Shown in pieces: positions 24,022-39,762 of a stretch of DNA of 39,762 bases (within the stretch, counting starts at the first letter, position 1; every line of letters begins with the position of its first letter). The notes below the pieces were generated by a model. That model did not search any database, was not told the origin of the DNA, and saw nothing but the letters and a program-made list of their open reading frames with translations. The translations under genes and the position numbers were made by a program. The stretch comes from Candidatus Buchananbacteria bacterium (GTDB lineage: Bacteria; Patescibacteriota; Patescibacteriia; 2-01-FULL-39-33), in assembly GCA_903859075.1 (NCBI GenBank), contig CAIOLF010000051.1, positions 1 to 39,762 on the forward strand, read 5' to 3'.

Positions 24022-24344
24022 TCCGCGATAGCTCAATGGTAGAGCAACCGGCTGTGATCAATAAACGCAGCTTCCGAAAGAAATTTCGGAATGAAAATCG
24101 GGTGAATTCAGGGAAACCTAAATCCAACGCATTGGATATGGCAATCCTGAGCCAAGTCCTGACATTATGTCGGGAAAGGTGCAGAGACTATCCCCTTGGG
24201 GAGTAGTCCTATTTACATAAATAGGCCGAAGCGCCCGATACCTAAATCTCTTAATGAGATACGGTAGTGATATAGTCCACGCTTTAGTGAAAACTAGAGA
24301 CAAGTGTAACCGGTAGGTTGCTGGTTCGAATCCAGCTCGCGGAG
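24022..24344 (+). tRNA. tRNA-Asn(GTT), intron-containing; exons 24022-24055 and 24307-24344; no encoded CCA
   Basis: Joined exons give a TCCGCGA/TCGCGGA acceptor stem, GCTCAATGGTAGAGC D arm, ACCGG-CTGT|TAA-CCGGT anticodon arm, GCTGG-TTCGAAT-CCAGC T arm and discriminator G. Confidence 0.95.
24056..24306 (+). ncRNA. Group I self-splicing intron, 251 nt, no internal ORF
   Basis: P1 GCUGU/GCAGC with U:G at the splice site; P3 ATCGGGTG/CGCCCGAT; P AATTCAGGGAAA; Q GCAATCCTGAGC; R GTGCAGAGACTA; S GATATAGTCC; terminal G at 24306. Confidence 0.94.
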
Positions 24345-25979
24345 CTGAGAATTGGTTTGCTTAAGAGCAGGGGTTAAAACCCCTGTTTTTATTTGGTTTA
24401 TTAACATTTCAGCGGTTCGAACCCTCTCTTTTACCTGAATTGAACTCGGATTCATTTTTTCCATCGCTTGAAATAGATTACCCCAATGAAAATGGGCTTT
24501 TCTATCCATTAAGATGCGGTTCGAACCAAGCAATTTTAGAAAAGCGTTTCTGCCCTCTGGAGAGCACTTATCAAATATAATATCAGAGTATGACGAGAAC
24601 TTTAGTATCTCTTCCTCAGCTTGCCGATTGGTAGTGATTTTGTCATTGACGTTCTCTCTTTTTTCGCTGATTTCAATCTTCTGTACTTCCAAATCTCTTT
24701 TTTTTGTAACATAGTCTTCCTGACTTAAATCACCGGATAATCGCATATCCAATAAGCGGTCCGTTTTAAATTTGATGCTTGCATGTTGCTGATCCAATTC
24801 TTTAGCCAATCCCATATTCATTCCAAGCTCTAAATATTCGTTGTTTTCTATTTCATTCAGCGCCCAGATGGTGAATGGCAATGGGAATTGTATTTTATGG
24901 ATTTCTTCTTTGATTGAGCCAACTAATATTTCTACCGGAACAACGCTTTGATGGCACTTTTTCCCCTTATCCTTGTCATCCTTGCTTTTAGTACAATGGT
25001 AATAGGTATAAAAGTGTTGTTTTCCTGATTTCTGCGTTTTAGTTTTATTATCGGCAGTGATCGCAGCACCGCATTCCCCGCAGGTAAATACTTTATAGGG
25101 ATGTACTGCACCCAACTGGATAGTCTTGGCCTTCAATCCCAAAGCCTCTTGAACCTGATCAAATAGTTTCTTATCAATCATGGCCGTATGCTTGCCGGTG
25201 TAAATATTGCCACTGTCTTTTGGATACTCATAATAACCATAGTAGAAAGTGTTGGTCAAAATATTGTAAATTGTGGATTTGCCTATCTCGCGCCCAAATT
25301 TACCGGTCAATCCGAGTTCCTTATTAGCCACACCAACCAGGGCGCCGCAGGAGTGCTGTCCTCGTGCGGCAATATGAAATAGCTTCTGGACCTTATAAAA
25401 TTTGTCGGGGTTAGTTATAATCTCTTTGTATCCCTTCTTTTCACTACCGTCTGATTTGTATCCCAGAGGTGGAGTATTGGGGAACCAGCCCTTTTCTGCT
25501 TTGCTAATGATGCCTCTTTTACTTGCTATGCTTAAGTCTTTAACATATTGATTTGATATAGCCATTTCGAGCGCCATAATTATAGAATTATCAGACGGAA
25601 GATATGTATGGAGGGGCGTTATGATGGCTTTGATTTTACCAATCTGTAATCGATGAATAATTTTGCCATTCTCTTCCGCATTTCTAGAAAGACGATTAAT
25701 ATGCCAGCAGACAATTCCGTCGTATTTTCCTTTATCAATATCCTTTAGCATTTTATCAAATTCGGGACGATTATCTGGCCAACTAGCACTCTTCGATTCA
25801 CTAATGGTTGTAAGAATGCTGATATCCATTTTTGAGGAAAGAGGCATAGTTTCTTTAATCTGGTCTGGTATCGACTGGACTTGCCGATCTATGGCTTCTC
25901 CAGATTTTCTGACATAAAGAACAAATTTTAATTGGTGAATATTAACTTCATCGGTGTAGATTAGTTTATATTTCTTCAT
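24294..25979 (-). CDS. Large serine recombinase (integrase)
   Basis: YVRKS catalytic motif, RPEFDKML, NRLSRN, PLGY, ILTNTFYYG, Zn ribbon CGECG...YYHC...C, coiled coil. Likely start ATG 25979. Confidence 0.93.
   Translation of the reverse strand: MKKYKLIYTDEVNIHQLKFVLYVRKSGEAIDRQVQSIPDQIKETMPLSSKMDISILTTISESKSASWPDNRPEFDKMLKDIDKGKYDGIVCWHINRLSRNAEENGKIIHRLQIGKIKAIITPLHTYLPSDNSIIMALEMAISNQYVKDLSIASKRGIISKAEKGWFPNTPPLGYKSDGSEKKGYKEIITNPDKFYKVQKLFHIAARGQHSCGALVGVANKELGLTGKFGREIGKSTIYNILTNTFYYGYYEYPKDSGNIYTGKHTAMIDKKLFDQVQEALGLKAKTIQLGAVHPYKVFTCGECGAAITADNKTKTQKSGKQHFYTYYHCTKSKDDKDKGKKCHQSVVPVEILVGSIKEEIHKIQFPLPFTIWALNEIENNEYLELGMNMGLAKELDQQHASIKFKTDRLLDMRLSGDLSQEDYVTKKRDLEVQKIEISEKRENVNDKITTNRQAEEEILKFSSYSDIIFDKCSPEGRNAFLKLLGSNRILMDRKAHFHWGNLFQAMEKMNPSSIQVKERVRTAEMLINQIKTGVLTPALKQTNSQLRELDSNQQPTGYTCL
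24367..24390 (+). terminator. Terminator of the tRNA-Asn transcript, lying inside the recombinase ORF
   Basis: GCAGGGGTT/AACCCCTGT followed by TTTT. Confidence 0.7.
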
Positions 25980-25998
25980 AATATTTATTTTTTTGTTA

Positions 25999-26172
25999 TT
26001 AGTTAAAATTGGTCGTTTGTCGACCATAGGTTCCATTATAATAAATATCATCGTAAACAGCCAGTAGGTTGGTAGCCATTTCTCTGGCTTCTGATACGGG
26101 GAGCCAATCTCCATAGTAGCAGAAGTAATAAATAATGAATTTAGCTAAGGCTAAATCAGTTAACTGGGTCAT
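25999..26172 (-). CDS. 57-aa protein directly upstream of the integrase
   Basis: MTQLTDLALAKFIIYYFCYYGDWLPVSEAREMATNLLAVYDDIYYNGTYGRQTTNFN; ATG 26172, TAA 25999, 19 nt before the integrase ATG. Confidence 0.6.
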   Translation of the reverse strand: MTQLTDLALAKFIIYYFCYYGDWLPVSEAREMATNLLAVYDDIYYNGTYGRQTTNFN

Positions 26173-26296
26173 AGCGGTAAAATAAAATTAATAATTATAT
26201 TCTCCCTCCGCTTCCACCAGCTTAGGTGTTATTCATATTAACCAATAACTCCTGTAATTGTTTCTATTATATTTTAGAGTTATTTTTTATTATTAG

Positions 26297-26332
26297 TGGT
26301 GCTAGCGTAGAGTTGCCCCCACACTAGCACCA
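26297..26332 (-). terminator. Hairpin after 26339..26707
   Basis: TGGTGCTAG/CTAGCACCA. Confidence 0.45.
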
Positions 26333-26338
26333 AAATAT

Positions 26339-26707
26339 TTATCTTTTGTTCGGCTTGCCTTTTTTCGAAGCAAGACTTTTCTTAATCCGACGTTCAACTT
26401 CTTTATCGGTTGGGAATTCGGTGATAAATTGTCCCTCCACCGTTTTAGGCTTCAATTTCTTGACATTTACTGGTTGAAGACAGAAAGGGCAAAAATATTG
26501 TTCGCTTTCCAAGCTGTAATCAATACTAGCCAAACCCCACTTTTTAATACCATGTTTACATATACCCCAAAGCATGATCCCATAGCCAGGGCTATTGTGC
26601 GTGTAAAAAGCATGGTTAAAATGTTTGTGGCATGAGGGGCATTCAAAAGCCTCAAAGGTCGCGGTCTTTAAACTCTCTTTATTCTTTTGTATTTTTTTTG
26701 TTGTCAT
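26339..26707 (-). CDS. Hypothetical Zn-ribbon protein
   Basis: FECPSC...YFCPFC; basic termini. Confidence 0.6.
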   Translation of the reverse strand: MTTKKIQKNKESLKTATFEAFECPSCHKHFNHAFYTHNSPGYGIMLWGICKHGIKKWGLASIDYSLESEQYFCPFCLQPVNVKKLKPKTVEGQFITEFPTDKEVERRIKKSLASKKGKPNKR

Positions 26708-26753
26708 ATTCTTTTTTTATTTTATTAAATTTCTCCCCCCGCTTATCACCAAA

Positions 26754-26969
26754 TTAGGTGTTGTACAGATCCTGCAATAATTCCCTGACTTGCTGCCGAT
26801 CTTTGGGATCGTAGTCACTAGGATCAACCAATTGCAGAAACTTCCTTTTGAGAAGTGACCTGCTCTTGAGCTTGTGCTTCATCAAGGTTGTTTTGAAGCA
26901 AACTAGACTTGACCAGTCTGGATGCTTCTCCAGGATATTCCGGAACTTTTCTTCAAAGCCCATATGCAT
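26754..26969 (-). CDS. Hypothetical protein
   Basis: AAGGAGG SD; overlaps the upstream ORF in operon fashion. Confidence 0.6.
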   Translation of the reverse strand: MHMGFEEKFRNILEKHPDWSSLVCFKTTLMKHKLKSRSLLKRKFLQLVDPSDYDPKDRQQVRELLQDLYNT

Positions 26970-27171
26970 CCTCCTTGGTTACTTTCTGTTTATTCTTTTT
27001 CATCTTGGACTTGTGAACATTAATCAGCTTGTCCAAGAATCCGGCCATGGTTCGAGTGTCCATGTTTCGTTTGATCCACTCCAATTGCTTACGATTGGCT
27101 CGTACCATCGTATTGAAGTAGGATTTTTGATTCCTGCGCATAATTAGGAAGTTATGAGTAAAATTAGCCAT
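26953..27171 (-). CDS. Small basic protein, possibly ribbon-helix-helix DNA-binding
   Basis: TMVRANRKQLEWIK...TMAGFLDKLIN has a strand-helix-helix pattern (inference). Confidence 0.5.
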   Translation of the reverse strand: MANFTHNFLIMRRNQKSYFNTMVRANRKQLEWIKRNMDTRTMAGFLDKLINVHKSKMKKNKQKVTKEDAYGL

Positions 27172-27206
27172 TCATACAATCTCTTGTAAGATAACTATAC
27201 TCCTAA

Positions 27207-27485
27207 CCCCCCTTCGGGTCTCTGGCAGGCACAACTTTCTTATTTTCTTATTATCTTATCGTTTAATTCTTGTTTTTCACTTCTAAGACTCTTATATCCG
27301 GTGTCCTATAATACTAGTTAATAAGCATTATGTAGCACGGTGTCCAATAGTAAATACAGTTATTAAGGATAGGTACAAGAAAAAAGTGGCGATTTGCATT
27401 AAAAATCATCTCTTCTTCTTGCTTTCAATTGTCAAAGTACAGTTTTAATTTAAAAAATTGTGCCTGCCGTCAACCGTCAGGGGGG
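27207..27485. repeat. Bipartite inverted repeats around an AT-rich core with a 15-bp direct repeat
   Basis: CCCCCCT-N10-GGCAGGCACAA (27207-27234) and its inverse (27458-27485); CGGTGTCC(T/A)ATA(A/G)TA at 27299 and 27338. Confidence 0.7.
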
Positions 27486-27845
27486 ATCCTTTCCACCGGT
27501 TATTTTATTCTCGCCCGGTTACCTAGGATAAGGTTGAGTAACGAGAGAAGTTTTGATCCGAAGATCTTTTTTTGGATGATTCCCTTGTTCTCAGTTGCCT
27601 CATTGAAGGGCAGACTTGAGAGGGGAAATGATCCGAGTGTGGATTAGTGGCCACTTACTATTTTCATATATGAGATCATTATATCATAAGTACAAATCCG
27701 TGTCAGCCAACGCAATGAACTTCTGGTGCCATTTTCTATTATTAGCTATAGCCCCGATATTCATTGGTCTTTTTTCAAGGAATTAGGGAGATATTTTATC
27801 GATTAATATTTTCAGAAAAATTTGCAATTATAATTTTTTTCTGAC

Positions 27846-28343
27846 TTAGACACCCCATTTCTCTCTCAACTTAATGAATGATTCTACCCGCTTGGTCGGC
27901 CTGCCATCATAAAGCGCCCGTCTAATTTTCTCACGCTTTTCCATTAGACAAGCCAAGCGATTCATCTTGTAAAGCACGCCCCCCATCAAGCTCTTGCTGA
28001 CCCCCTTCACTTGATACACCAGCTTATGGCAATTCCTGCACGCAAACCTATCTCCGCCAGGAATCAAATACAATACCGAACATCTCCTCCCACACTGACA
28101 TTTGAAGTATTCCTTATCTCCCAGCGGTAACTCCACGCTTTCTATTTCAATTATCTGACTTTTAACCTCGTCATAAGATTGGAAGGTGATATTGGCCAGC
28201 TTCAAATCATTGGTGTAACTCAAAGAATAAGCCACCGACATTTCTTGGCCATCACATTCAGCTTTGGCTAGGTGTGATAATCCGTCATTGGCGCTAAATT
28301 CTCTGATATTTAATTTCCAGCACTGTTCTACCTTAGTAAGCAT
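27846..28343 (-). CDS. Hypothetical protein with Cys-rich Zn-finger
   Basis: YFKCQCGRRCSVLY...FACRNCHKLVY. Confidence 0.7.
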   Translation of the reverse strand: MLTKVEQCWKLNIREFSANDGLSHLAKAECDGQEMSVAYSLSYTNDLKLANITFQSYDEVKSQIIEIESVELPLGDKEYFKCQCGRRCSVLYLIPGGDRFACRNCHKLVYQVKGVSKSLMGGVLYKMNRLACLMEKREKIRRALYDGRPTKRVESFIKLREKWGV

Positions 28344-28671
28344 TGTTTTCTATTTAAATTACTATCTTAATCTAATCGTATCATAAGTCATAAATTTTTT
28401 ACTAACCCTTCCTTAATCCCTTGTAGCTTTCTCTTCTCCGCCCACTCCTCAATTTCTTTCCGCCGGCCAGCTAATACTGTTACCCTAACATCCTTAGCCA
28501 TTGGGTCCCATATCGATTCAACAACTCCCCCATGCCCTCCAACCAAGCTAAAGATTATCCAGCCTACCACTAAATATTTGATTCCAGTTATCCTGGGATC
28601 TTTTATTAATAATTATCCTCAATCTTCGCCAGTAACTCTTGGCGTTCTTTTTGGATAAGAAAGGAAATTAT

Positions 28672-28971
28672 ATGGAGTCAATCGGTGAAGTCCTGGCTAC
28701 TAACTGGTCAGGAAGTCAAAAGACAGCGCAACTGGTGAGGCAGCAAATCCTCGAGAGATTTGGCCCAGAAGCCGCAGAGCAGTACAAGCCCGAAAGTAAC
28801 ACAATGACTTATCGGGAGGCTCTCAAAAGGGGCTACAAAGTAATCAAAGGTCAGAGAAGTCTAAAATCAATCACCTTCGTGGAAAAGGAAGAGTCCAATG
28901 GAGCGACAATACGCATCCCTCGGACAGTCCATTTGTTCTTTGTTCCACTTCAATGTGAGAAAGTAAATTGA
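28672..28971 (+). CDS. ArdC-like N-terminal ssDNA-binding domain protein
   Basis: MTYREALKRGYKVIKGQRS...HLF...Q resembles ArdC WxTxxQAxxxGxxVxKGE...VF..Q; AAGGA SD before ATG 28672. Confidence 0.65.
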   Translation: MESIGEVLATNWSGSQKTAQLVRQQILERFGPEAAEQYKPESNTMTYREALKRGYKVIKGQRSLKSITFVEKEESNGATIRIPRTVHLFFVPLQCEKVN

Positions 28972-28978
28972 TAAATCT

Positions 28979-29209
28979 ATGACTAAGGATTATCTCGTCT
29001 CCTACAAGCCCGGCAATAATCAATTAAAAACTCCCATGATCCGCCTATCTAATAAGCGTTTCTTGGAGAGTATTTCCGGCTTAAATATCGGAGACACCAT
29101 CTGCGTTGAGTATTTGCCCAACGCAATAATTATAAAGAAAATTAATCCACAAAATTATGTCCAAATTCAACTTCAAGATCAAGGGCAGGCTGAACCGATA
29201 TCAGCGTAA
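28979..29209 (+). CDS. SymE/AbrB-fold small protein
   Basis: PMIRLSNKRFLESISGLNIGDTICVEYLPNAIIIK resembles SymE PxLxLxGxWLxxxGFxxGxxVxV. Confidence 0.55.
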   Translation: MTKDYLVSYKPGNNQLKTPMIRLSNKRFLESISGLNIGDTICVEYLPNAIIIKKINPQNYVQIQLQDQGQAEPISA

Positions 29210-29432
29210 TAACCTTGAAATCCTGACCGACGAGACAGTAAGAAGATTAAGATCGGGAGACTGGTCAGCTACTCCTGCCCCGATTCTTAAATGTATAAAT
29301 TGCGGGGGCCGGATTTCCACCTATAATCTTCGCTACTTTGACTACAGAGGAGAGGAAGTTCTCTGCTACCATTGCCAAACAGGAGAAGAAATTCATGCAG
29401 TTCCAGCTAGAGAGGGGGCAAGAATCATATGA
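29157..29432 (+). CDS. Hypothetical Zn-finger protein
   Basis: CINCG...LCYHCQ; ATGA coupling to the next gene. Confidence 0.6.
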   Translation: MSKFNFKIKGRLNRYQRNNLEILTDETVRRLRSGDWSATPAPILKCINCGGRISTYNLRYFDYRGEEVLCYHCQTGEEIHAVPAREGARII

Positions 29433-29896
29433 CTAGAGGAATTGGCGTCCTTCTCACGGACAATTGGCTAGTCAGGACTCAAGAATATAATGGCGATATG
29501 TACCTTGATAATTCTAGTAATGGCTATTATTTCGCTGAAGCCCTAAGAAATGTTAATGATTTTAATTCCTTCCATTATGCCGTCAATGGCTTTAATCAGG
29601 ATTTTTTCGGTTACTCTGACTTTTCTTTGTTCCGCTCAGCCCTTCCTTCCCAACTCGCCTTCACTCAGTACAGCTATATCTCTAGGTGGTTCTCAGACTT
29701 CCTGTTCATCCGAAACGCCACTGACAAGCCATACACTATAGTTGATATCAATAATGAAGCTCTGTTTTTGGAGAAGGGTATTACCGCCATTTATTACTTC
29801 GGTTCTTTCTATGGCACGGTCAATGACTCCGAGCCTCCTTTTTGCCTCAATCGAAAGCAAAAAGAAAATTATATTAATAATCTTCAAAAAATATGA
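29429..29896 (+). CDS. Hypothetical protein
   Basis: 155-aa ORF coupled by ATGA overlaps at both ends. Confidence 0.65.
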
Positions 29897-30237
29897 CGAT
29901 CAATGAAAACACCTATAATCCGATCCAGATTAATTACACCATTCGAAGAAATGCCAATGGAGAAGTAACTGAAAGAAGCACCATGGTTAATGTGAGGACA
30001 GAGAGTTCCGATGAGGCCATCAAACTCTACAATGAACTCAAAGCGCAACTCAACGGTGAATTGTCTGGCACCCCTCATACTACTGAGGACAACTCCGGTA
30101 GCTCCGTCCAATTATTTAATGACAAATCAGATACCTGTCCAAAGTGCGGTAGTGATTTAAAACTCAGGAAAGGTCGAAGCGGAGAGTTCTGGGGTTGCAG
30201 CAATTATCCGAGTTGCCGGTACACCCAACAAGCGTAG
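29893..30237 (+). CDS. Protein with topoisomerase-type C4 Zn finger
   Basis: [30 protein letters not shown]. Confidence 0.85.
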
Positions 30238-30246
30238 AGAATAATC

Positions 30247-30282
30247 AAAGCCCTGGTTCAATAGCACGGATCAGGGCTTTTT
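30247..30282 (+). terminator. Operon terminator
   Basis: AAAGCCCTGGTTC...GGATCAGGGCTTTTT. Confidence 0.75.
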
Positions 30283-30310
30283 AATTTCTTTTATAATTAA
30301 TTTCTAATCT

Positions 30311-30517
30311 ATGTCCAATAATAATCGCCTTATCTATCACTTGAAGAATTATCAAGTCAAAGAAAATGCCAATGTCTGGAGATGTTCAAGTTGCCACCAG
30401 TTATTTCTAAAACACCGTCTATATCTCCAATATCCTCATTTACCCAAACCGCCAAGAGTATTTTGCTCTCATTGCCTGGATTTAGTAAGGGTTAGGAGGA
30501 ATTACGCACCAGCTTAG
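30311..30517 (+). CDS. Small Zn-finger protein
   Basis: CSSC...CSHC. Confidence 0.5.
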   Translation: MSNNNRLIYHLKNYQVKENANVWRCSSCHQLFLKHRLYLQYPHLPKPPRVFCSHCLDLVRVRRNYAPA

Positions 30518-30636
30518 GATTTTAACCATATTTCCGAGCCACAGAGACCTTCAGGAGCGATTTTTATTTCCAAATTAAGTATTTATCCATTCCAAGCAAT
30601 TCCAGAGCTAAAAGAGCTTAATTTGGCACCTGCTTG

Positions 30637-30665
30637 TTGCAAAATCTCTGTTATTTTGGTATAGT
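30637..30665 (+). promoter_or_regulatory. Sigma70-type promoter with extended -10
   Basis: TTGCAA-17 nt-TATAGT, with TG before the -10. Confidence 0.6.
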
Positions 30666-30693
30666 AAAAAGTACAATCTATACACAATCTAAA

Positions 30694-30820
30694 CCATCGG
30701 ATTTATCTGGTGGCATGATTGAAAGACTCATGACAATACTAACCCCCACGGTTAGCAACTTGTCATGAGCCATGTTTGGAAACGGACATGGGCCGAAAGG
30801 CTAGCTGGCGTGGGGTTTTG
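30694..30820 (+). ncRNA. Putative structured RNA leader of unknown family
   Basis: Several stems with G:U pairs, two GAAA tetraloops and a 7-bp loop-to-3' complement (CCCCACG/CGTGGGG). Confidence 0.6.
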
Positions 30821-30854
30821 TGTTTGTATAAAAAATTAATTATTTATTAAAAAT

Positions 30855-31295
30855 ATGTCAGAAACAAACAGTAATCATAACACCAAGCGGTTATTAATAA
30901 TCGTCTTGGCAATCATCTGTGTTATCATTGTTTTTTTTGTTGCCCTTGGAATATTAATTAGTAGTGTAGAAAAACAAAAAGCGGAAGCCGAATCAGTTAA
31001 ACAGCAAAGTCAGTTAATTATCAACGAACAGAAAGAGGATACAAGGCAAAGAAATCTTGATCGGTGCTATCAGGATGCTGACAGTCAATATAATTCTGTT
31101 TGGAGATCTAATTGCGATACCGTCTATCAAAATTGTCTGAGCAATAAAGCGACAAATTATCTTTACGCTAAAGTAAATTGCCAAATCTACAATCCCGAAA
31201 ATCCCAATTGTAATCTTCCTTCTGAAACAGCTAAAACTCTTGAATCGAGCAAGCAAAATGCTAGAAAAGAGTGTTTACAAAGGTATTCCAACTAA
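30855..31295 (+). CDS. Membrane-anchored Cys-rich protein
   Basis: N-terminal TM helix, coiled coil, six Cys in the predicted exterior part. Confidence 0.7.
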   Translation: MSETNSNHNTKRLLIIVLAIICVIIVFFVALGILISSVEKQKAEAESVKQQSQLIINEQKEDTRQRNLDRCYQDADSQYNSVWRSNCDTVYQNCLSNKATNYLYAKVNCQIYNPENPNCNLPSETAKTLESSKQNARKECLQRYSN

Positions 31296-31319
31296 TTAAT
31301 CTAAATAATATATAATTCT

Positions 31320-33410
31320 ATGAAAAAATTAACATCCTGCATATTGTTCTCTCTGCTTATCTTCGTGGCTTTGCCTGTTGTGGTTGCTAGTGCCCAGACT
31401 GTTGGAGGAGGCGGTGGCGGTGGGGTTTCATATACTGCTCCAATCCCTCAAGTCATCACTCTTAACCCCGGCTGGAATGTCATCTCCGTTCCTAACCTCG
31501 TTAACTCTCACAGTTTTTCTTCTCTAGACAAGAACTTTGATATTAAATTGCTCGAGTCCGGCAAGTGGAAGAGCATGAGCCAGCTTAATCAAAGTGAGTT
31601 CCAACCACTCTTTGGCTACTTCGTTAAGAACAAAACTAAGACCAGTCAGACTTTAACCTTGAATTACAAAGGCAATGTCTCAGCAGATGAAGTCAAGTTC
31701 TCCAGGCAGATGAAAGATGGCATTAATGTTATCGGTATTGCCAATCCTCAATACGCCTTAAAGCAATCAGATCCTAACTCTGGTAAAGATAACGCCAGCA
31801 GTATCCTAGGAGACACCAATAAATGCGTCATAGCTCTCTTTGACTTCACCTATACCAACCCCGATGACTCTTCAGTTAAGATTTCCCAAGGGTGGCTACT
31901 CAAGAATATTTTTAGTTTCAAGAAGATTAAGGATCTCAAAGAAACCAAGGCTTATGGCGTCTGGCTCAAGAAAGATTGCCAGTATAAGGGATATCAAGAA
32001 CCTACTGCTCCGGTTATTCAAATAGGCCAATTGACTGTAAGCAAGAATTCAGGATATTCAGACATTAATGCTGTCGCCAATATGACTAATGTTAGAATTG
32101 GTGAATATGTCTTTAGTGCTGCCAATGAAGACCTGATCCTTCGTTCTTTAAATCTTAACTTCCTCTTTGGTTATGACAAAGTAAGAAATGTCCGTTTAGT
32201 TATCGATGGCACTACTCTTGATACTGTTTCCCAATTATCTTCCAGCTCAACCATTTACTCTCTCAATCTTTTTAAATTATCTCAAGGTCAAAGCAAAGCC
32301 ATTTCAATTTATGCCGATATTAATACTGACGCCACCGGAACGATTCAAACTCAAATCGCTAACCAGTCTGATGTCATGGCTATGGGAACGAGTTATGGCG
32401 TAATGGCTAATGTCTCAGGCACTCCGGCAATAGGTCAGACAGTCTCAATCATTAATTCTAAGATAATCGCTTTTCAAAATTCTGTTAATTATAGTTTGAT
32501 TCCTGCAGGCGTAAGCGGTGTTAACTTGGCCACTGTCTTTTTTCAGGCAAGGGACGGGAGTTTTAAAATAGACAACCTGGCTTTTAAATCGGCTACCCAG
32601 GCAACCAGTATAGAAAACATCCGCCTAGTTTCGAATAATACCGTTATTGCCTCCGGCAGGACGAATCAAGATAATCAGATTAAATTCAGTGACATTAATT
32701 TTGTCATCCCCAATGGAACCGTTGCCAACTTGAGATTAGTTGCTGACATCTCCCCAGTCAATTTCATCTCCGGAGAAATATTCCGCTTTGATTTAGATCC
32801 TACGGGTTTTGCAGCTCAAGAAGTGGCAACCGGTAATGCAGTGCCTAGTTATGAATCATCAAATCCTATCATTGGCAATCAGATAGTAGTCAGAAAGAGC
32901 GTACTCCATATCACCACTCTTCAGTCATCAGGGATTTTAGTTAATGGCGACAATAATTTAATTAGATTTAGTGTTGCCTCCGATGTTGTAGGCCCTATCA
33001 GTTGGAAGAAGATCACTCTTAATTCTCAGGTTTCGGATGGTATTAATCTTTCCAACCTTCGTCTGTATGATGGCGCCAACAATTTAATCAACACTGACAT
33101 TACTCTTCAAGCCAATGGCGATATTATCATAGAGTTACCACAAGAGGAGTATGTACCAGCGGGAGTCTCTAATAGCTACATTTTAAAAGCAACGGTGGAT
33201 GGTACAGAAGTTCCTAATGCCTTCATCTCTACACGGATTAAGGGATCTATCGGCACTTTAGGCACAACTTCAGCCTATAACCCCAACATTGATAATTTCA
33301 TCTGGTCCGATCTCTCTTCTGGTGACAGTCACTCTTTGACTTCTTCTGATTGGTGCGATGCCAATTATGTGATGACCTTGCCTTCCAATTCCTATATCCT
33401 AACCAAATAA
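31320..33410 (+). CDS. Secreted surface protein with beta-sandwich (Ig-like) repeats
   Basis: Signal peptide, Gly7 tract, LNPGWNVISVP motif, three similar beta-rich modules ending in IYADI, LVADI and LKATV. Confidence 0.7.
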   Translation: MKKLTSCILFSLLIFVALPVVVASAQTVGGGGGGGVSYTAPIPQVITLNPGWNVISVPNLVNSHSFSSLDKNFDIKLLESGKWKSMSQLNQSEFQPLFGYFVKNKTKTSQTLTLNYKGNVSADEVKFSRQMKDGINVIGIANPQYALKQSDPNSGKDNASSILGDTNKCVIALFDFTYTNPDDSSVKISQGWLLKNIFSFKKIKDLKETKAYGVWLKKDCQYKGYQEPTAPVIQIGQLTVSKNSGYSDINAVANMTNVRIGEYVFSAANEDLILRSLNLNFLFGYDKVRNVRLVIDGTTLDTVSQLSSSSTIYSLNLFKLSQGQSKAISIYADINTDATGTIQTQIANQSDVMAMGTSYGVMANVSGTPAIGQTVSIINSKIIAFQNSVNYSLIPAGVSGVNLATVFFQARDGSFKIDNLAFKSATQATSIENIRLVSNNTVIASGRTNQDNQIKFSDINFVIPNGTVANLRLVADISPVNFISGEIFRFDLDPTGFAAQEVATGNAVPSYESSNPIIGNQIVVRKSVLHITTLQSSGILVNGDNNLIRFSVASDVVGPISWKKITLNSQVSDGINLSNLRLYDGANNLINTDITLQANGDIIIELPQEEYVPAGVSNSYILKATVDGTEVPNAFISTRIKGSIGTLGTTSAYNPNIDNFIWSDLSSGDSHSLTSSDWCDANYVMTLPSNSYILTK

Positions 33411-33427
33411 GCGTTTTAAGATATGCC

Positions 33428-33462
33428 AAAAGCCCCTGGAATCTTGTCTTTCTGGGGCTTTT
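33428..33462 (+). terminator. Terminator
   Basis: AAAAGCCCCTGGA...TCTGGGGCTTTT. Confidence 0.7.
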
Positions 33463-33520
33463 AGGTGTTTGCCATTTTCAATAATTAATGGCAGAATTAT
33501 AACAAATTACCAATAATATT

Positions 33521-34567
33521 ATGGCTACATTATTTGTCTTCCTATTCCTGGCTTCCCTGGTAGTTTTAGTCGTGGGTCTCATCAAGCCGTCTTGGGTCAT
33601 CAAGTGGGGCCAAAAGAGAGGTCGCAAGCAAGTTGGCCTGTACTATAGCATTTCTACAATAGTATTCTTCTTCCTCATAGCCGCCTTTGCCCCTCCAGTA
33701 GAGAAAACAAACATTAAAGCAGATAAGTCAGTGGAGAATGCTTCAATTACCACTTCAACCTCTACCACTACTCCTAATACCTCTACTTCTACCATTGACT
33801 CTGTTGTTTCTTCTTCTGATCCGAATCTAAGCAGTCCCTTGAATGAGGTTACTAATTCTAATCAGACAGCCGCTCAGGCAAGTGTGGTTAGTCCGACAGT
33901 TTCCCCAGCAGCCAATCAGCCTGTCAAAACTTCAGATACTCCTCAGCTTTTCAAAGTCACTAAAGTTGTTGATGGCGATACGATAGAAATTAGTACTGGT
34001 GAAAGAGTCAGGTATATCGGCATGGACACTCCGGAGACAGTTGATCCCAGGAAGTCGGTGCAGTGTTTTGGCAAAGAAGCTAGCAACAAGAATAAGGAAC
34101 TAGTCGAAGGCAAGGAAGTCAGATTGGTTAAAGATATTTCCGACAAAGACAAGTATGGAAGACTGCTAAGATATGTTTATGTCGGGGATACTTTTATAAA
34201 TTTGGAATTAGTTAAACAAGGATATGCTAGCTCATACAGCTATCCGCCGGACATCAAATACCAATCCCAGATACTTCAAGCTCAGAAAGATGCACAAGTC
34301 GCTAAGCTAGGTCTTTGGTCTGCTTGCGATGGCACTCAAGCGGTTGCTACCACTACTGTCGTTGTTCCTCAGGCTACCACTCAAACTCAAGGAAGTAATG
34401 GTTGCGATATTAAAGGTAATATAAGTTCAGGAGGAAAAATTTACCATCTGCCTGGCTGTGGCAGTTATGATAAGACAGTAATTGATGAAAGTGCTGGTGA
34501 AAAATGGTTTTGCACTGAGGCCGAGGCAGTGGCCGCAGGATGGAGGAAAGCATTAAATTGTCCGTAG
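33521..34567 (+). CDS. Membrane-anchored thermonuclease (SNase) with C-terminal Cys-containing domain
   Basis: VVDGDTI, VRYIGMDTPE, DKYGRLLRYV, GLW; two TM helices and a Ser/Thr linker; CDIKGNIS...IYH...WFCTEAEAVAAGWR tail. Confidence 0.92.
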   Translation: MATLFVFLFLASLVVLVVGLIKPSWVIKWGQKRGRKQVGLYYSISTIVFFFLIAAFAPPVEKTNIKADKSVENASITTSTSTTTPNTSTSTIDSVVSSSDPNLSSPLNEVTNSNQTAAQASVVSPTVSPAANQPVKTSDTPQLFKVTKVVDGDTIEISTGERVRYIGMDTPETVDPRKSVQCFGKEASNKNKELVEGKEVRLVKDISDKDKYGRLLRYVYVGDTFINLELVKQGYASSYSYPPDIKYQSQILQAQKDAQVAKLGLWSACDGTQAVATTTVVVPQATTQTQGSNGCDIKGNISSGGKIYHLPGCGSYDKTVIDESAGEKWFCTEAEAVAAGWRKALNCP

Positions 34568-34854: not shown

Positions 34855-34863
34855 AAATAAAGG

Positions 34864-34892
34864 AGGGCAGAGATATGGTGGTCTCTGCCCTC
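34864..34892. terminator. Hairpin between convergent genes
   Basis: GAGGGCAGAGA/TCTCTGCCCTC. Confidence 0.7.
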
Positions 34893-34913: not shown

Positions 34914-36104
34914 TCACTTGCCAAAAAATCGGGTAACACTGAGTGAGACAAGATTGGCACTATCTTTGTACTCTCCCGGTGCTACAAACCCATGATGATG
35001 GTCAACTTTGCGTTCGCCCCAGCCGTAGTTATAGCCGAGATCCAAACGCCAGTTTTTGCTGGGCGTGTATCCGAAGCCAACTCCAACGCCCGGGCCAGGA
35101 ACTTCTGGGGCAATAGGACTTTGCGTCGCTTTGGGAATCGCCGCTGTATGCCAGCAAAATCCTGCACGCAACATTAGTTTGTCCGTTGCTGCATACTCAG
35201 CCCCAATGTTTGCACTGAAGTTGCTGTGCCAATTCATCGCCTGGCGATAGGTGAATAGTCCGCCTAGTTTGGCCGTCATGTTCTTGTCCGCTTCATAGTT
35301 GTACCAAGTGCCATCCAATAGAAGTGTCAATCGCTGGTTGGCTTTGATCTTGAGTCCCACTCCTAGTCGTCCCGGAAATGTAAACTCTGTTTCCATTTTG
35401 GTTTTAAGAAGCGGTAATCCCAGAAGTGACAACTTGGTTGAACCGTTAAGCGGTGTCTTGTTGGGTAGTACGCCGGAGATGCCGAAAGTCACTGAGTCAT
35501 TAAAGCGATAAAGCAGTCCTGCGCCAACACTTACTCCTATGCCGGTGGCGTTAGCATCCATGCCAATCGCTTCAACCGGTCTTCCGACAAGTTGGACTGG
35601 TGCCACATTGGTAAACTGCGCATAACCGACATTGAGATTCAGTCCTAGCGACAATTTATCAAATCGGTAAGCGATGGCAGGAACTATTTCCGTCATATTG
35701 AGCATGCCTTCTTTCCAGGGAAAGTCTCCTTTGTATTTGCCTCCCAGACCGCCGACCACATGCCAACCGATACCGCCACTTAAGCGATCGGTCAGACGAG
35801 TGGAAAAGCCGCCGAAGGGCATAGCCAGAAGTTCTTTCTCTGAATTTTTGGAGTAGCCCGCATTCTCATATCGGGCTCCCGCAAGTATCCCCTCCATGCC
35901 GCACTGTAAAGCAGTGTTTTCGATGAGGGTCAACCCTGCGGGGTTATAGTAGTACGCCGAGGCATCGATGGGATCGGCAATTTGTGCACCGCACATTGCC
36001 ATAGCCCTGGGTCCGACGCTAGCGCTTACCCTGTTGACACCTCCGGCTGAAGCCAAAGGCGAAATCAACATGGTTATGGCCATCATTATTGCTATTGTTT
36101 TCAC
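34914..36104 (-). CDS. fadL: FadL/OmpP1/TodX-family beta-barrel transporter
   Basis: Signal peptide, RAMAMCGA...DASAYYYNPAGL hatch motif, alternating beta strands, GAEY...LRAG, near-terminal Phe; AAGGAG SD and GTG start. Confidence 0.85.
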   Translation of the reverse strand: MKTIAIMMAITMLISPLASAGGVNRVSASVGPRAMAMCGAQIADPIDASAYYYNPAGLTLIENTALQCGMEGILAGARYENAGYSKNSEKELLAMPFGGFSTRLTDRLSGGIGWHVVGGLGGKYKGDFPWKEGMLNMTEIVPAIAYRFDKLSLGLNLNVGYAQFTNVAPVQLVGRPVEAIGMDANATGIGVSVGAGLLYRFNDSVTFGISGVLPNKTPLNGSTKLSLLGLPLLKTKMETEFTFPGRLGVGLKIKANQRLTLLLDGTWYNYEADKNMTAKLGGLFTYRQAMNWHSNFSANIGAEYAATDKLMLRAGFCWHTAAIPKATQSPIAPEVPGPGVGVGFGYTPSKNWRLDLGYNYGWGERKVDHHHGFVAPGEYKDSANLVSLSVTRFFGK

Positions 36105-36288
36105 TAGAGTTCTCCTTGTGTTTTTTGGCTTAATTTGAAGGTTCGGTCATGAAATATCTGAACATTAAATATTACTATAATTTAGATAAAAAGTCAATGG
36201 TTGACCTTATCGGGCTGGACAAATTTATAATATTGTGCTATTATTATATATTGATGATTTCTGCTATAATGGAGACTGAATAAGAGGA

Positions 36289-37455
36289 ATGTACCTTCAC
36301 ATTACACTTGGGAGACATAACATGCAAACCAGAAAGAAACGAATTGTTTTGAGGACCTTCAATGTCCTGCTGGCTGCTGTCCGCGACTTGTTAATTTTGC
36401 TCCTGCCATCATTTTTTGGTCGATTGCTGATCACGAAAGGTGATTATGCCTTCTTGATTCATCCGCGCGATTTGGATGACGTATCAAGAAAGTATACCTT
36501 CTCAAAATATTTCAATCCTAAATTAGTACGTTGGACAATAAGGCATATGTGGCCTGTTATTGGTTCACGGATTACAGGATTGAAGTCTTTGGAGGATGGT
36601 AGGGAATTGGTTGGCTATCTAATGATCTGCCCCATTACGGCAGAACAGATGCATACCGATCGCAAACTGGCACAGAAACGGATTTTGCAGACAGTGCAGT
36701 TGGCTGAAAAGCTCGGCTGTAAGACTATCGGCTTGGGAGCGTTGTCGGCATCGATGACAAGAGGCGGGGAATATCTGGTGGATAAGGTGAAGATCGGAGT
36801 TACAACCGGTCATGCCTATACCACCCTGGTGATTATTCAGACAGTTGAAGAAATCGCCAGGCGCAAAGGCATCAATCTGAAAGAAAAAACCGTAGCGGTT
36901 TTAGGGGCAGCTGGACTTATGGGCAATCCATGTTCCAATCTGCTGGCTCAGAACGGCATCGGCAGACTCTTGATGATTGATCGCCCGCAGAATCAGGAAA
37001 CCTTGAGGCAACTGACACTGGGAGTCAATCCCCATTGCCAGGTTGATATCTCAACCGACCTCAACTCGCTCAAAGAGGCTGACATCATTGTCGTGGTGAC
37101 TAACGCGCTTTCGGCTATCGTCAAACCGGAGCACTTGAAGGAAGGAGCGATCCTTGTCGACGACAGTCAGCCGCGCAATACCTCGCCGGCGCTATTGAAA
37201 GCCAGGCCAGACGTCTTGATTCTTGATGTGGTCGCATCCGCACCAGGAGTCCATACCCACTTCCCGCTGGATTTTCCTTGCAAGCATGATGTCTTCACCT
37301 GTATGGGTGAAGTGTTGATCCTCGCCGCGCATGGCTGGAAAGACAATTATGCCATCGGAAAATTCGATTATGGTCTAGTTGCGGAAATTGCCGATTTGGC
37401 CAAAGCAGTTGGGCTTTGTCCGGCGCCGTTCCGCAGCTTTAACCAGCTCGTCTAG
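36289..37455 (+). CDS. Acyl-ACP/acyl-CoA reductase-like NAD(P)-dependent oxidoreductase (COG5322-like)
   Basis: AFLIHP, LGALS, TTGHAYT, VAVLGAAGLMG, VDDSQPRN, VFTCMGE (compare cyanobacterial AAR TTGNTHT and FACFAE). Alternative start at 36322. Confidence 0.75.
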   Translation: MYLHITLGRHNMQTRKKRIVLRTFNVLLAAVRDLLILLLPSFFGRLLITKGDYAFLIHPRDLDDVSRKYTFSKYFNPKLVRWTIRHMWPVIGSRITGLKSLEDGRELVGYLMICPITAEQMHTDRKLAQKRILQTVQLAEKLGCKTIGLGALSASMTRGGEYLVDKVKIGVTTGHAYTTLVIIQTVEEIARRKGINLKEKTVAVLGAAGLMGNPCSNLLAQNGIGRLLMIDRPQNQETLRQLTLGVNPHCQVDISTDLNSLKEADIIVVVTNALSAIVKPEHLKEGAILVDDSQPRNTSPALLKARPDVLILDVVASAPGVHTHFPLDFPCKHDVFTCMGEVLILAAHGWKDNYAIGKFDYGLVAEIADLAKAVGLCPAPFRSFNQLV

Positions 37456-37488
37456 GACCTATCCTCGTGATAGGTCCTTCTTTATTTT
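37454..37488 (+). terminator. Hairpin after the reductase gene
   Basis: AGGACCTATC/GATAGGTCCT followed by T-rich sequence. Confidence 0.65.
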
Positions 37489-37513
37489 TGTAAAATGTGC
37501 TATAATATTAGAT

Positions 37514-39762
37514 ATGGATTTCCAAAATATTTTATTACTGGCAGTAACCATCATAAATCTCATTTGGGGTATTTTAATCCTTTCCCAAAGCAAGGGTAAG
37601 AAAGAAAACATTTTTTTCAGCTTAGTTGTTTTTAGTGTTGTATCTTGGTCGATAGCTATGATGGGTTATCGATGGGCCTCAAATAATTATACTCTAATTT
37701 GGTGCCGATTTTTGTATGTAACAGCCGTTTTAATACCGCTGTTCTTTTTATTTTTTAATTATCTTTTTCCCAAGCAAAAAGAAGGTTTCAAAATTCAACA
37801 AGCCATATTCATATCTTTACCGGCAGTAGCATTAATATTGTTGACTATTTTCTCAGATACTATTATTGCAAATGCATACAGAATACCGCATCAGGAAAAT
37901 AAGATTATTTTTGGAAGTTTGTATCTTTTTTATGTTGCTTATATTGTGGGTTATTTTAATTGGTCGTTCTTTCATTTGATTACAAATTATAAGAAGTATA
38001 CTGGGGTAATTAAAGCACAGATACGCTATATATTTCTAGGTGCTTTCATGGCCTCATTTGTGGCCATGGCGACTAATCTTTTATTGCCCTGGTTTAATTA
38101 TTTCGTATTCAATTGGTTTGGGCAGTTTTCTACCGTTTTATGGGTTTCTTTCACCTCTTATGCTATTATCCGTTATCGTTTAATGGATATCAGGATTATT
38201 GTTAGGAATGTTGCTGTCTATTTTGGCATCTCTCTCATTGCCTATGGTTTCTTCTATTTTTTGATTTGGTTTTATGACAATTTTTTCGGCGGGTCCTATT
38301 CTTTGATTGCTTATGCGGTAGGATTAATTATCGCCCCGGTATTTGTTGCAATTTTACTTAGCGTTTATAGGTTGCTATTATTTGTCGCCAATAAGTATCT
38401 TTTTTCATCGCTTTCTAGTTATCAGGAAACAATGGCTAAGCTAATCAAGGAATTAAACTATTCTATTGATTTGCAGAAGATAACTGATCTGATTGTAAAT
38501 ACCATTAAGCAGACCATGCAGCTTAATCGAGCCGGGGTTTTATTGCTGGATAAGAGCCAATCGCCTGATTTGTATCGAATTGCCAAAGTGATTGGTTTCA
38601 ATGAACAAAACGGCATTTCCTTGGTGCGGGATAATTTTTTAACTAAGTATTTAGAGAAAACAAAACTTCCTCTGGTCAGTGATGAATTGATTCTTTTGGC
38701 CAGGGATGCTAAAAGCAAGAAAGAGCAGGAAAGTTTTGAGAGATTATATGAACACATGGAGCATATTGAGGCCTCATTGTGTCTGCCATTGATCAGCAAC
38801 AAGAAGTTAATCGGTATTATTGTTTTGGGACTGAAAACATCGGGAGATGCTTACAGCAAAGAAGATTTGGAGTTGTTAGATATTTTGGCCAACCAAGCCA
38901 GCATTGCTATTAACAACGCTCAACAGTATAAGGAGATCCAAGAATTCAATGGAACGCTCAAGCAAAAAGTGACAGAGCAAACTGAAGACATCACCAAGAA
39001 GAGTCAATATCTACAAGAATTACTGGAGATGAAGTCAGATTTCTTAAGAGTAGTCAATCATCAATTGAATACTCCCTTGTCTATTATCAAAAGCGCCTAT
39101 TCAATGGTTAAGGAAGGCACTTTCTCTGCGGATAAGGGTTTTGAATATTCTTCCGGCGGATTACAACGTTTGGATGATACGGTCCAGGACTTCTGGGATG
39201 CCTATGAGCTTGAAGGCAATAAGATGAAAATGAATCCCGCTCAGACCGATATTGAGCAGGCAGTAAACGAATTAATCAAAGAGAAAGAAAAAATGCAGTT
39301 GGCCATAGAGAGAAAGATTAAAGTCTCTGTAATCAAGCCAACATTCAAAATTCCTCTTGCCTGGTGTGATCCCAAGAAGATTGTTCATGTCATTTCCAAT
39401 CTACTTGATAATGCGGTATATTACACCAGAGAAGGAAGTGTTACCGTCAGCTATGAATTGCAGGGCAATAATCTGTTGAAAGTTAATGTTAAAGATACAG
39501 GTACCGGTATTTCAGACGAAGACAAAAAAAGATTATTTCAAAAATTCTCCAGGGGTGTGAAATCAACCAACCTTCATCCGGACGGTTCCGGTTTAGGATT
39601 ATATATTGCCAAGAAAATTATAGAAGGTAATGATGGTGAACTCACTTGTTTCAGCGAAGGGGTAGATAAAGGAGCCACTTTCAGTTTTACCGTTCCTATT
39701 TATACTAATCAGAAGCCAGTTCCGGAAGGTGAATTTGATTATATAACTATGGATCAGAATAG
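37514..39762 (+). CDS. Sensor histidine kinase: HisKA_7TM-type membrane domain, GAF, HisKA, HATPase (runs off the window end)
   Basis: Manual translation from ATG 37514: many TM helices ending YAIIRYRLMDI; GAF LCLPL...LIGIIVLG...YSKEDLELLDILANQASIAINNA; NHQLNTPL, NLLDNA, DTGTGI, GSGLGL. Absent from the ORF track because there is no stop in the window. Confidence 0.92.
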   Translation, partial: MDFQNILLLAVTIINLIWGILILSQSKGKKENIFFSLVVFSVVSWSIAMMGYRWASNNYTLIWCRFLYVTAVLIPLFFLFFNYLFPKQKEGFKIQQAIFISLPAVALILLTIFSDTIIANAYRIPHQENKIIFGSLYLFYVAYIVGYFNWSFFHLITNYKKYTGVIKAQIRYIFLGAFMASFVAMATNLLLPWFNYFVFNWFGQFSTVLWVSFTSYAIIRYRLMDIRIIVRNVAVYFGISLIAYGFFYFLIWFYDNFFGGSYSLIAYAVGLIIAPVFVAILLSVYRLLLFVANKYLFSSLSSYQETMAKLIKELNYSIDLQKITDLIVNTIKQTMQLNRAGVLLLDKSQSPDLYRIAKVIGFNEQNGISLVRDNFLTKYLEKTKLPLVSDELILLARDAKSKKEQESFERLYEHMEHIEASLCLPLISNKKLIGIIVLGLKTSGDAYSKEDLELLDILANQASIAINNAQQYKEIQEFNGTLKQKVTEQTEDITKKSQYLQELLEMKSDFLRVVNHQLNTPLSIIKSAYSMVKEGTFSADKGFEYSSGGLQRLDDTVQDFWDAYELEGNKMKMNPAQTDIEQAVNELIKEKEKMQLAIERKIKVSVIKPTFKIPLAWCDPKKIVHVISNLLDNAVYYTREGSVTVSYELQGNNLLKVNVKDTGTGISDEDKKRLFQKFSRGVKSTNLHPDGSGLGLYIAKKIIEGNDGELTCFSEGVDKGATFSFTVPIYTNQKPVPEGEFDYITMDQN

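Follow-up and report, generated by a model that had tools for sequence, protein, structure and literature searches.

At its right-hand end, a 39,762-nucleotide stretch of DNA from a Candidatus Buchananbacteria genome (GCA_903859075.1, contig CAIOLF010000051.1; hereafter the window) carries three adjacent genes coding for a FadL-like barrel (34914..36104, minus strand), an enzyme resembling cyanobacterial acyl-acyl carrier protein (ACP) reductase (AAR; 36289..37455, plus strand) and a sensor histidine kinase with a seven-transmembrane (7TM) HisKA_7TM domain (37514..39762, plus strand). Our analysis suggests, as a serious possibility just short of probable, that in this trio an enzyme and a receptor might form a signalling cassette for a hydrophobic molecule derived from fatty acids, which would pass through FadL. 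The proposal is based on the strict genetic coupling of enzyme and kinase, a retained catalytic cysteine, the presence of an interchangeable enzyme in front of a hypervariable sensor, the lipid genes that accompany other copies of the reductase, and a Nitrospirota version ending in an HD-GYP protein. Patescibacteria are considered host-dependent for lipids and poor in regulatory systems. The cassette would provide testable ligand-receptor candidates in the uncultured Patescibacteria radiation and a first functional clue for HisKA_7TM. A first-pass annotation, generated by a model from the sequence alone, had proposed a lipid-related module at this site and knew of no description of the trio; likewise, our literature searches (supplements of papers left aside) retrieved no description of the trio, of FadL in the candidate phyla radiation (CPR)/Patescibacteria or of AAR beside kinases.

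To examine the gene neighbourhood of COG5322 homologs, as the first-pass annotation had suggested, 401 genomes of the class Patescibacteriia were searched with a reductase-family profile, and the open reading frames (ORFs) within about 6 kb on each side of the matches were scored with our own profiles. The reductase family was detected at 27 places in 24 genomes. At 22 of these places the reductase was immediately followed by a HisKA_7TM kinase in the same orientation (the pair in genome G048, where the ORF filter had kept a longer antisense frame, was judged from its coordinates). A single gene, coding for a GMC oxidoreductase or NadE, separated both partners at two places, one place was cut by a contig end and two were devoid of a kinase. 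The reductase-kinase spacers ranged from -32 to +145 bp; in seven loci the genes overlapped or lay within 11 bp. HisKA_7TM kinases are rare in the class (182 matches in 151 genomes, 95 of them positive, i.e. about 1.2 per genome; two in the present genome). Because of this low background and the wide recurrence of the pairing, the association of reductase and kinase in the class is beyond chance.

The same arrangement was observed outside the Patescibacteria. Eleven Nitrospirota and Elusimicrobiota loci were found with a Nitrospirota-type reductase alignment, the window protein alone having yielded three. The kinase gene was located directly downstream of the reductase in eight of them and divergently adjacent in two, and one locus was cut, so that the kinase was the immediate neighbour in 10 of 10 assessable loci. 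Across the three phyla, enzyme and membrane-kinase genes stay neighbours that overlap or lie a short way apart. The most complete version, Nitrospirota locus L249, contains a FadL-like protein, a reductase 60% identical to that of the window, a 7TM-GAF kinase, a receiver (REC) and a REC domain fused to an HD-GYP-type phosphohydrolase. The earlier proposal was to be abandoned if the three genes never co-occurred elsewhere; in fact, the reductase-kinase pair was recovered in three phyla, and the complete trio in a Nitrospirota metagenome-assembled genome (MAG) as well as in two Patescibacteria related to the present one.

The reductase (388 aa) has an alternative start codon at 36322; as read from the sequence, a Shine-Dalgarno-like GGGAG lies ahead of it at a distance closer to the norm. 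Its best NCBIfam match was the PigE N-terminal domain NF053554 (1.4e-35). The AAR model TIGR04058 was matched with 3.3e-20 and 72.7 bits, compared with an equivalog cut-off of 449.7, which places the protein outside the AAR orthologues. In addition, weak Rossmann-level matches to the Semialdhyde_dh family were obtained. A structure prediction (pLDDT 92.1), which the first-pass annotation had wished to see compared with AAR, identified AAR 6jzy as top structural match (Foldseek: E 2.9e-20, TMt 0.80) and, next in rank, 9e4s, 9e50 and 9e56 of the carmabin TAD, with TMq values of 0.70-0.72 for the top PDB matches. The Rossmann G-x-G-x-x-G motif reads GAAGLMG. The first-pass annotation had placed the cysteine of the FTCMGE motif at the catalytic position of AAR. 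Indeed, this residue (C338) aligns with Cys294 of AAR 6jzu and with the cysteine of PigE. The titles of PDB entries 6jzz and 9e56 name AAR-C294S and a Cys2238-dephosphocoenzyme A disulfide, respectively. An equivalent of C338 was kept in 25 of 27 aligned rows of the family; the two rows lacking it are the two kinase-less loci. On the basis of the modelled fold, the Rossmann site and the cysteine, the window protein fits the AAR-fold, Cys-dependent NAD(P) thioester reductases of the COG5322 superfamily. The designation as an acyl-ACP-reductase-like enzyme can thus be retained for fold and catalytic residue, whereas AAR orthology is dropped.

Comparison with solved relatives revealed what is shared and what is not. 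Cyanobacterial AAR (6JZQ, 6JZU, 6JZY) has the fold, the Rossmann motif and the Cys294 position in common with the window reductase, but the two are only 22-23% identical, and the window protein possesses an extra N-terminal helix (residues 9-47; 36289-36430) and has no aldehyde-deformylating oxygenase (ADO) partner. AAR belongs to an alkane pathway, whereas the window enzyme is paired with a sensor kinase. ADO (PF11266) was not found in any of five reductase-bearing genomes, with Synechococcus as a positive control, so that the AAR-ADO pair is not what these genomes hold. PigE (4PPM), which shares the cysteine, was the best PDB sequence match (E 5.9e-22). In a study on KecF, the COG5322 domain of this protein is predicted to reduce an ACP-bound polyketide to an aldehyde, and COG5322 domains are proposed to act as thioester-to-aldehyde reductases in polyketide-type pathways (PMC6498172). 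In contrast to PigE, KecF and the carmabin TAD (4PPM, 9E4S), which are fused to an aminotransferase or a megasynthase, the window reductase is a stand-alone protein; it has no aminotransferase at its side, and the next gene codes for the kinase.

Within the family, the window reductase was 17-38% identical to the other Patescibacteria copies and 51-60% identical to Nitrospirota proteins. In a quick, midpoint-rooted maximum-likelihood tree it fell into a clade of ten rows (SH-aLRT 98), the others being one unlabelled relative of 87% identity and eight Nitrospirota rows. The Nitrospirota-like origin of the reductase shows that such modules move between phyla. The first-pass annotation had also named unrelated phylogenetic origins of the three genes as an argument against a common function. 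This applies to the reductase, but FadL and the body of the kinase are both Patescibacteria-like. Separately, 22 long relatives of the reductase (493-818 aa; e.g. P0097, P0105, P0112, P0118, P0125) carry N-terminal extensions of 120-455 aa. None of these extensions matched the profiles used, including HisKA_7TM, and a crude hydropathy scan indicated at most two transmembrane (TM)-like stretches. When P0097 and P0118 were searched against PDB sequences, only the reductase part was matched. A reductase-7TM fusion as Rosetta-stone evidence was consequently rejected, as none of the 22 long relatives matched HisKA_7TM.

The kinase gene probably starts with the ATG at 37514 (MDFQNI) and its frame is open at the contig end. 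As the first-pass annotation had stated, the gene following the reductase codes for a 7TM-GAF kinase: HisKA_7TM (PF16927; 37532-38191; 36.6 bits, cut-off 28.6), GAF (~38468-38911), HisKA (~39029-39193) and HATPase_c (~39368-39700; 81.2 bits) were all matched. Two more hydrophobic stretches behind the HisKA_7TM domain were read by eye as putative TM helices. In an alignment of 26 rows, H516 (counted from 37514) was invariant, and D632/N633, D661-G663-G665, F675 and G691-G693-G695 were conserved. With its 7TM domain, phospho-acceptor histidine and N, G1, F and G2 boxes, the protein is, judged from these residues, a HisKA_7TM sensor histidine kinase. A look-up of the 7TM region in the ESM Atlas returned HisKA_7TM clusters only. 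The last 12 nucleotides of the window (39751-39762) are identical to the first 12 of contig C24 of the same genome and in frame with the kinase. The kinase frame runs on for 22 further codons past this overlap and then stops. It is followed by a gene for a 157-aa stand-alone receiver (C24:84-557), which is 60-61% identical to the receivers behind the two closest kinases (G292, G375; G292: 61%). The downstream genes, whose inspection had been recommended, thereby supplied a receiver across the C51-C24 overlap; in the family as a whole, only a part of the loci have a receiver behind the kinase.

Further HisKA_7TM proteins were noted alongside. The other HisKA_7TM kinase of this genome (548 aa; G000:C5:2608-6264, locus L088) is encoded directly after a pyruvoyl-dependent histidine decarboxylase (PF02329, E 5.6e-55); both are a candidate pair of histamine maker and 7TM receptor. 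Kinase-less, stand-alone HisKA_7TM proteins of 223-229 aa are encoded directly upstream of the reductase in L050 (G375:C6) and L052 (G247:C11), with the full kinase still located downstream. In L055 (G338:C2), a kinase-less HisKA_7TM protein lies three genes upstream of the reductase, and a full kinase downstream.

FadL was present at 22 places in 18 of the 401 class genomes. At 10 of the 22 places a HisKA_7TM kinase was located within three genes, and the usual layout was that of the window: FadL divergent from an enzyme gene, which is followed by the kinase. The enzyme itself varied. In the window it is the AAR-like reductase; in G024 and G015, two genomes of the same family, the slot is occupied by CER1-like_C reductases (PF12076), which are about 20% identical to the window reductase. 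Four FadL loci carry a Methyltransf_20-type S-adenosylmethionine (SAM) methyltransferase (a fifth has the methyltransferase with the kinase six genes away), one of them, L095, together with a 3-hydroxyacyl-CoA dehydrogenase. Two loci (G292, G375) have a 347-aa Rossmann protein without assignment, and at one FadL locus no enzyme was recognised. That the 347-aa protein is a hidden reductase was rejected, since hhalign aligned merely 45 Rossmann columns with 75% probability. The view of the trio as one set consequently needs to be modified: the enzyme-kinase core is conserved, FadL is an optional third member and methyltransferases are commoner than reductases in the enzyme slot.

Variable enzymes were also found upstream of HisKA_7TM kinases in general. 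Among the best 30 HisKA_7TM loci of the class, 26 were directly preceded by an ORF in the same orientation and 215 aa or longer, which our own profiles assigned to methyltransferase-like proteins (9), reductases (4) and others (13). A Pfam tally was performed on 27 ORFs, namely 23 of these 26, the ORFs that fill the enzyme slot at three FadL loci with a kinase, and the FadL-adjacent ORF of L093, a locus without a nearby kinase. As pooled family counts, which are not member-by-member matches, it yielded SAM-methyltransferase families in at most nine ORFs, FAR-type NAD_binding_4, DFP and epimerase-type in two each, and class I/II aminotransferase, HAD, ThiF and OmpR-type regulator in one each.

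The sensor domain diverges much faster than the remainder of the kinase. FadL-linked kinases were 55-73% identical in TM8-9 plus GAF, whereas identity of their 7TM parts averaged 28.4% in 31 pairs with different enzymes and 41.5% in seven pairs with the same enzyme, a descriptive comparison of overlapping sets with non-independent pairs. That the fast-changing 7TM part in some measure follows the type of enzyme lends indirect support to the idea that the kinase might recognise what its enzyme makes. The window 7TM was 34-36% identical to those of Nitrospirota reductase-linked kinases and 26-33% identical to methyltransferase-linked ones. The GAF domain and catalytic core of the window kinase side clearly with the Patescibacteria FadL-linked group.

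Taken as a signalling cassette, the genes would be ordered as FadL channel, divergent from a small-molecule enzyme, followed by the HisKA_7TM sensor kinase and a stand-alone receiver. FadL would let the hydrophobic signal or its precursor pass through the outermost envelope layer. With NAD(P)H and Cys338, the reductase would reduce an acyl thioester to a hydrophobic aldehyde, or act on a related imported molecule. The product could enter the membrane and be sensed there by the kinase of the adjoining gene through its 7TM domain. The kinase would phosphorylate a CheY-like receiver, probably that at the start of C24.

Known systems follow a comparable logic. In the PhcB-PhcS system, phcB is located directly upstream of phcS. 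According to two studies, the Ralstonia methyltransferase PhcB produces methyl 3-hydroxymyristate, which is detected by the sensor kinase PhcS (PMC8578825, PMC11960443). As in the present cassette, the gene of a fatty-acid-modifying enzyme is paired with that of a membrane sensor kinase; the nearest parallels are the methyltransferase versions, including L095 with its 3-hydroxyacyl-CoA dehydrogenase. The likeness is one of function and gene pairing, the protein families probably being different. Rpf/DSF (RpfF-RpfC-RpfG) and CqsA-CqsS likewise combine a multi-pass membrane kinase with a fatty-acid-derived signal, and the Rpf output is a REC-HD-GYP protein. This output is matched by the REC-HD-GYP-type protein of L249, and the RpfB ligase is paralleled by an AMP-binding ligase beside some reductase copies. 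In contrast to the crotonase or PLP synthase of these systems, the present cassette employs an AAR fold and a HisKA_7TM sensor, and in Patescibacteria it ends in a bare receiver, unlike the REC-HD-GYP protein of Rpf.

A wider generalisation is speculative, and we consider it improbable. The HisKA_7TM kinases of Patescibacteria and some double-membraned phyla might be a large family of G protein-coupled receptor (GPCR)-like receptors, each hard-wired to the gene of a ligand-making or ligand-editing enzyme, with enzyme and sensor exchanged as a unit among lineages, and even phyla, on a conserved kinase body, and with FadL, in the branch linked to it, residing without the β-barrel assembly machinery (BAM) in an unrecognised outer layer or in the outer membrane of the host. 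If so, the ligands could comprise fatty aldehydes, methyl esters, histamine and acyl-amino compounds, a modular chemical language of ultra-small symbionts toward hosts or kin, and a FadL inserted into the host outer membrane would be a lipid tap.

Several observations weigh against a signalling cassette. First, ACP, an AMP-binding enzyme and a ketosynthase (KAS) were not found in this 93%-complete genome. The source of a thioester is therefore not visible here, and the substrate would come from elsewhere, perhaps via FadL, or would not be a classical acyl thioester. Second, Omp85/BamA, secretin and TolC-type OEP were each found in none of five host-family genomes, although the positive controls were matched, which makes the location of FadL puzzling. 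Third, enzyme type and 7TM similarity do not strictly track each other, because 7TM identity of same-enzyme pairs went down to 25.8% and the best match of the window 7TM (41%) was the G292 kinase, which is accompanied by the 347-aa enzyme. Fourth, the stand-alone reductases of Chloroflexota, a phylum with the family in 51 of 301 sampled genomes, are encoded between a hexapeptide-repeat (LbH) protein and a REC-GGDEF regulator without an adjacent membrane sensor, so the link could be to the phosphorelay and not to a ligand. Fifth, the end of the reductase gene and the beginning of the kinase gene are separated in the window by a terminator- or attenuator-like hairpin (37454..37478, plus strand; 10-bp stem, T tract) and a promoter-like site, and both genes may thus not be strictly co-transcribed. 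Finally, no ligand was named in the literature found on the HisKA_7TM domain. A synthase-transporter-receptor set for a lipid signal, as envisaged in the first-pass annotation, is consistent with the recurrence of pair and trio, the AAR fold and the cysteine. The "lipid signal" stays conjectural, because the enzyme is interchangeable, an acyl-thioester source is not visible and the nearest relatives of the genes differ.

Alternatively, the trio could be a loop for lipid homeostasis or scavenging, resembling DesK-DesR-Des of Bacillus. Here, the kinase would sense the membrane state or the supply of host lipids, and the reductase would be the regulated tool that remodels acyl chains imported by FadL into aldehydes or alcohols for membrane lipids under the control of the stand-alone receiver. 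The adjacent FadL fits this explanation, as does the observation that the present genome yielded no fatty-acid synthesis genes, in agreement with the first-pass annotation, which had seen neither ADO nor such genes in the window. It is also compatible with the lipid enzymes beside other reductase copies. An AMP-binding enzyme is encoded directly upstream of the reductase in three loci, in L054 and, as homologues from the same cluster, in L055 and L062, and nearby in L053 and L020 (L054 is annotated as such, the others were assigned by cluster). Another copy has a GMC oxidoreductase at its side, and in G024 a KAS-FabG-ACP-FabA-KAS cluster adjoins reductase and kinase on two contigs, following the same logic as the thioester-reducing domain of KecF. 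In Pfam, the receivers behind the kinase matched the receiver domain and nothing else (L015, L020, L092, L094), or they were receiver-profile ORFs of 123-157 aa, which makes an output by protein contact plausible. However, chemistries as unrelated as methyltransferases, histidine decarboxylase and an aminotransferase precede near-orthologous kinases, which would hardly be expected if the kinases served membrane homeostasis alone. Moreover, a hypervariable 7TM domain is what a ligand-specific receptor would show, and a family as patchy as this one (24 of 401 genomes) is ill-suited to a core lipid pathway. We therefore regard a homeostasis loop as unlikely.

The G024 clusters deserve mention in their own right. 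L016 (G024:C4) and L017 (G024:C3) are near-identical KAS-FabG-ACP-FabA-KAS-reductase-kinase-kinase-kinase-receiver clusters in one 1.2-Mb Patescibacteria genome. They amount to a small set of FAS/PKS-like genes, although fatty-acid synthesis is said to be lacking from this lineage.

The reductase might also serve as a co-sensor, docking on the kinase and reporting the NAD(P)H/NAD(P)+ ratio or the level of acyl thioesters, with catalysis being secondary. Strict gene order and overlapping reductase stop and kinase start codons in several loci are compatible with a physical complex of this sort. The commonest neighbours of the kinases, reductases and methyltransferases, are both cofactor-binding Rossmann folds. 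Furthermore, the conserved N-terminal helix that distinguishes the window reductase from AAR contains an RD...LP motif, whose residues R32, D33 and P40 hardly vary among the Nitrospirota-type sequences, and is a candidate membrane- or kinase-docking element. The Chloroflexota operons, in which the family is tied to receiver proteins without a membrane sensor, point in the same direction. On the other hand, the catalytic cysteine is kept in every kinase-linked copy, and some copies have genes for making a substrate (KAS, ACP, AMP-binding) beside them; both findings argue for real substrate turnover and render a mere co-sensor decidedly unlikely. In these Chloroflexota operons (L189-L212), genes for a hexapeptide-repeat protein (~425 aa), the AAR-like reductase, the REC-GGDEF protein (~300 aa) and an unknown protein (~165 aa) follow one another; L002, L191, L194 and L197 were annotated and the remaining loci matched by gene sizes. 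A second Chloroflexota form of 685-790 aa has an N-terminal half without assignment fused to the reductase.

The 396-aa FadL protein of the window is a FadL/Toluene_X-family 14-strand-type barrel with a signal-peptide-like N-terminal helix, hatch helices and an NPA motif, and its GTG start is preceded by AAGGAG. Residues 13-392 matched positions 3-419 of the 421-position Pfam profile Toluene_X/FadL (PF03349) with an E value of 1e-33 and 116.9 bits, well above the gathering score of 29.7. The structure model (pLDDT 86.1) superposed best on 3dwo (TMq 0.83), followed by E. coli FadL and TodX; the FadL, TodX and TbuX structures 3dwo, 1t16 and 3bs0 gave TMq values of 0.75-0.83. The hatch motif is kept (YYNPAGL), with N54 invariant in 29 aligned rows. 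Full-length Pfam match, barrel fold and NPA hatch motif are thus shared with E. coli FadL and the TodX/TbuX/CymD channels, to which the window protein is only 14-20% identical. Contamination or recent import of the FadL gene was ruled out by three observations. Its GC content at third codon positions (GC3: FadL 0.51, reductase 0.55) is close to the 0.53-0.58 of housekeeping genes on the contig, FadL is richer in GC than its surroundings in eight of eight relatives checked, and Patescibacteria loci (G292: 57%; G355: 50%) are among its nearest relatives, which share 50-62% identity with it, compared with 29% in other phyla.

FadL ordinarily requires an outer membrane. In contrast to the setting of E. 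coli FadL and TodX, the lineage of the window yielded neither Omp85/BamA nor secretin nor TolC, and, as far as genes can tell, an outer membrane assembled by BAM is not to be expected in the five family genomes. A FadL without detectable outer-membrane assembly genes bears on the nature of the envelope and on the uptake of host lipids. It also raises the question of whether FadL is a bystander, with reductase and kinase forming the unit and FadL being a neighbouring envelope gene of unrelated role, or a relic. In favour of a bystander, FadL is next door at only 3 of the 27 reductase places of the class, about half of the FadL places are without a nearby kinase, and one FadL copy is interrupted by an in-frame TGA. 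Nevertheless, a kinase within three genes at 10 of 22 FadL places stands out against the low number of kinases per genome, the divergent arrangement persists even where the enzyme is a different one, the same trio exists at the Nitrospirota locus, and FadL, with its housekeeping-like GC3, is retained in 9 of the 11 host-family genomes sampled. A bystander role consequently appears quite improbable. The interrupted copy is split into two ORFs, and one cassette kinase is split as well, with HATPase_c on a separate 141-aa ORF (loci L091, G375:C2, and L090, G292:C3); both may possibly reflect decay or sequencing errors.

That the reductase acts on signalling proteins, for instance on a receiver whose aspartyl-phosphate it would reduce in analogy to aspartate-semialdehyde dehydrogenase and thereby forming a new two-component off-switch, would fit the ties of the family to two-component proteins in four phyla, including the Chloroflexota REC-GGDEF proteins, and the weak Semialdhyde_dh matches, but it lacks direct evidence and is very improbable given a fold and nearest solved relatives typical of thioester reductases in lipid and polyketide pathways and the lipid genes adjoining some copies.

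The remaining features of the region concern expression signals and the genomic context. FadL and reductase genes are separated by a gap of 184 bp (36105..36288) with a GC content of 29.3%, compared with 43.5% in the whole window, which corresponds to the divergent arrangement across an AT-rich gap described in the first-pass annotation. Two promoter-like sites are positioned back to back within this gap (minus strand: TTGACT-17-TAATAT, 36197-36169; plus strand: TGGACA-17-TATTAT with TG, 36216-36244). A terminator-like hairpin (34863..34892, minus strand; 11-bp stem, 7 GC pairs, T tract) is located just 3' of the FadL stop codon. The window represents the whole of contig C51 of an 895-kb genome in 72 contigs. 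The CTP synthase encoded on it has its closest relatives in Patescibacteria MAGs (at most 77% identity), the nearest named groups being Magasanikbacteria (68-69%), Falkowbacteria (68%) and Portnoybacteria (66%).

Upstream of the trio, a gene for a large serine recombinase with Resolvase, Recombinase and Zn-ribbon domains was observed at 24294-26114. From there to about 34.6 kb, the GC content falls to 38-42% and many small ORFs occur. This stretch also codes for a 696-aa protein without Pfam match (31320-33410), which has a signal-like helix and a glycine run at its start, and for a membrane-anchored SNase-type nuclease (33521-34567). The segment from 24294 to 34567, which directly precedes the cassette, is a possible integrated element.

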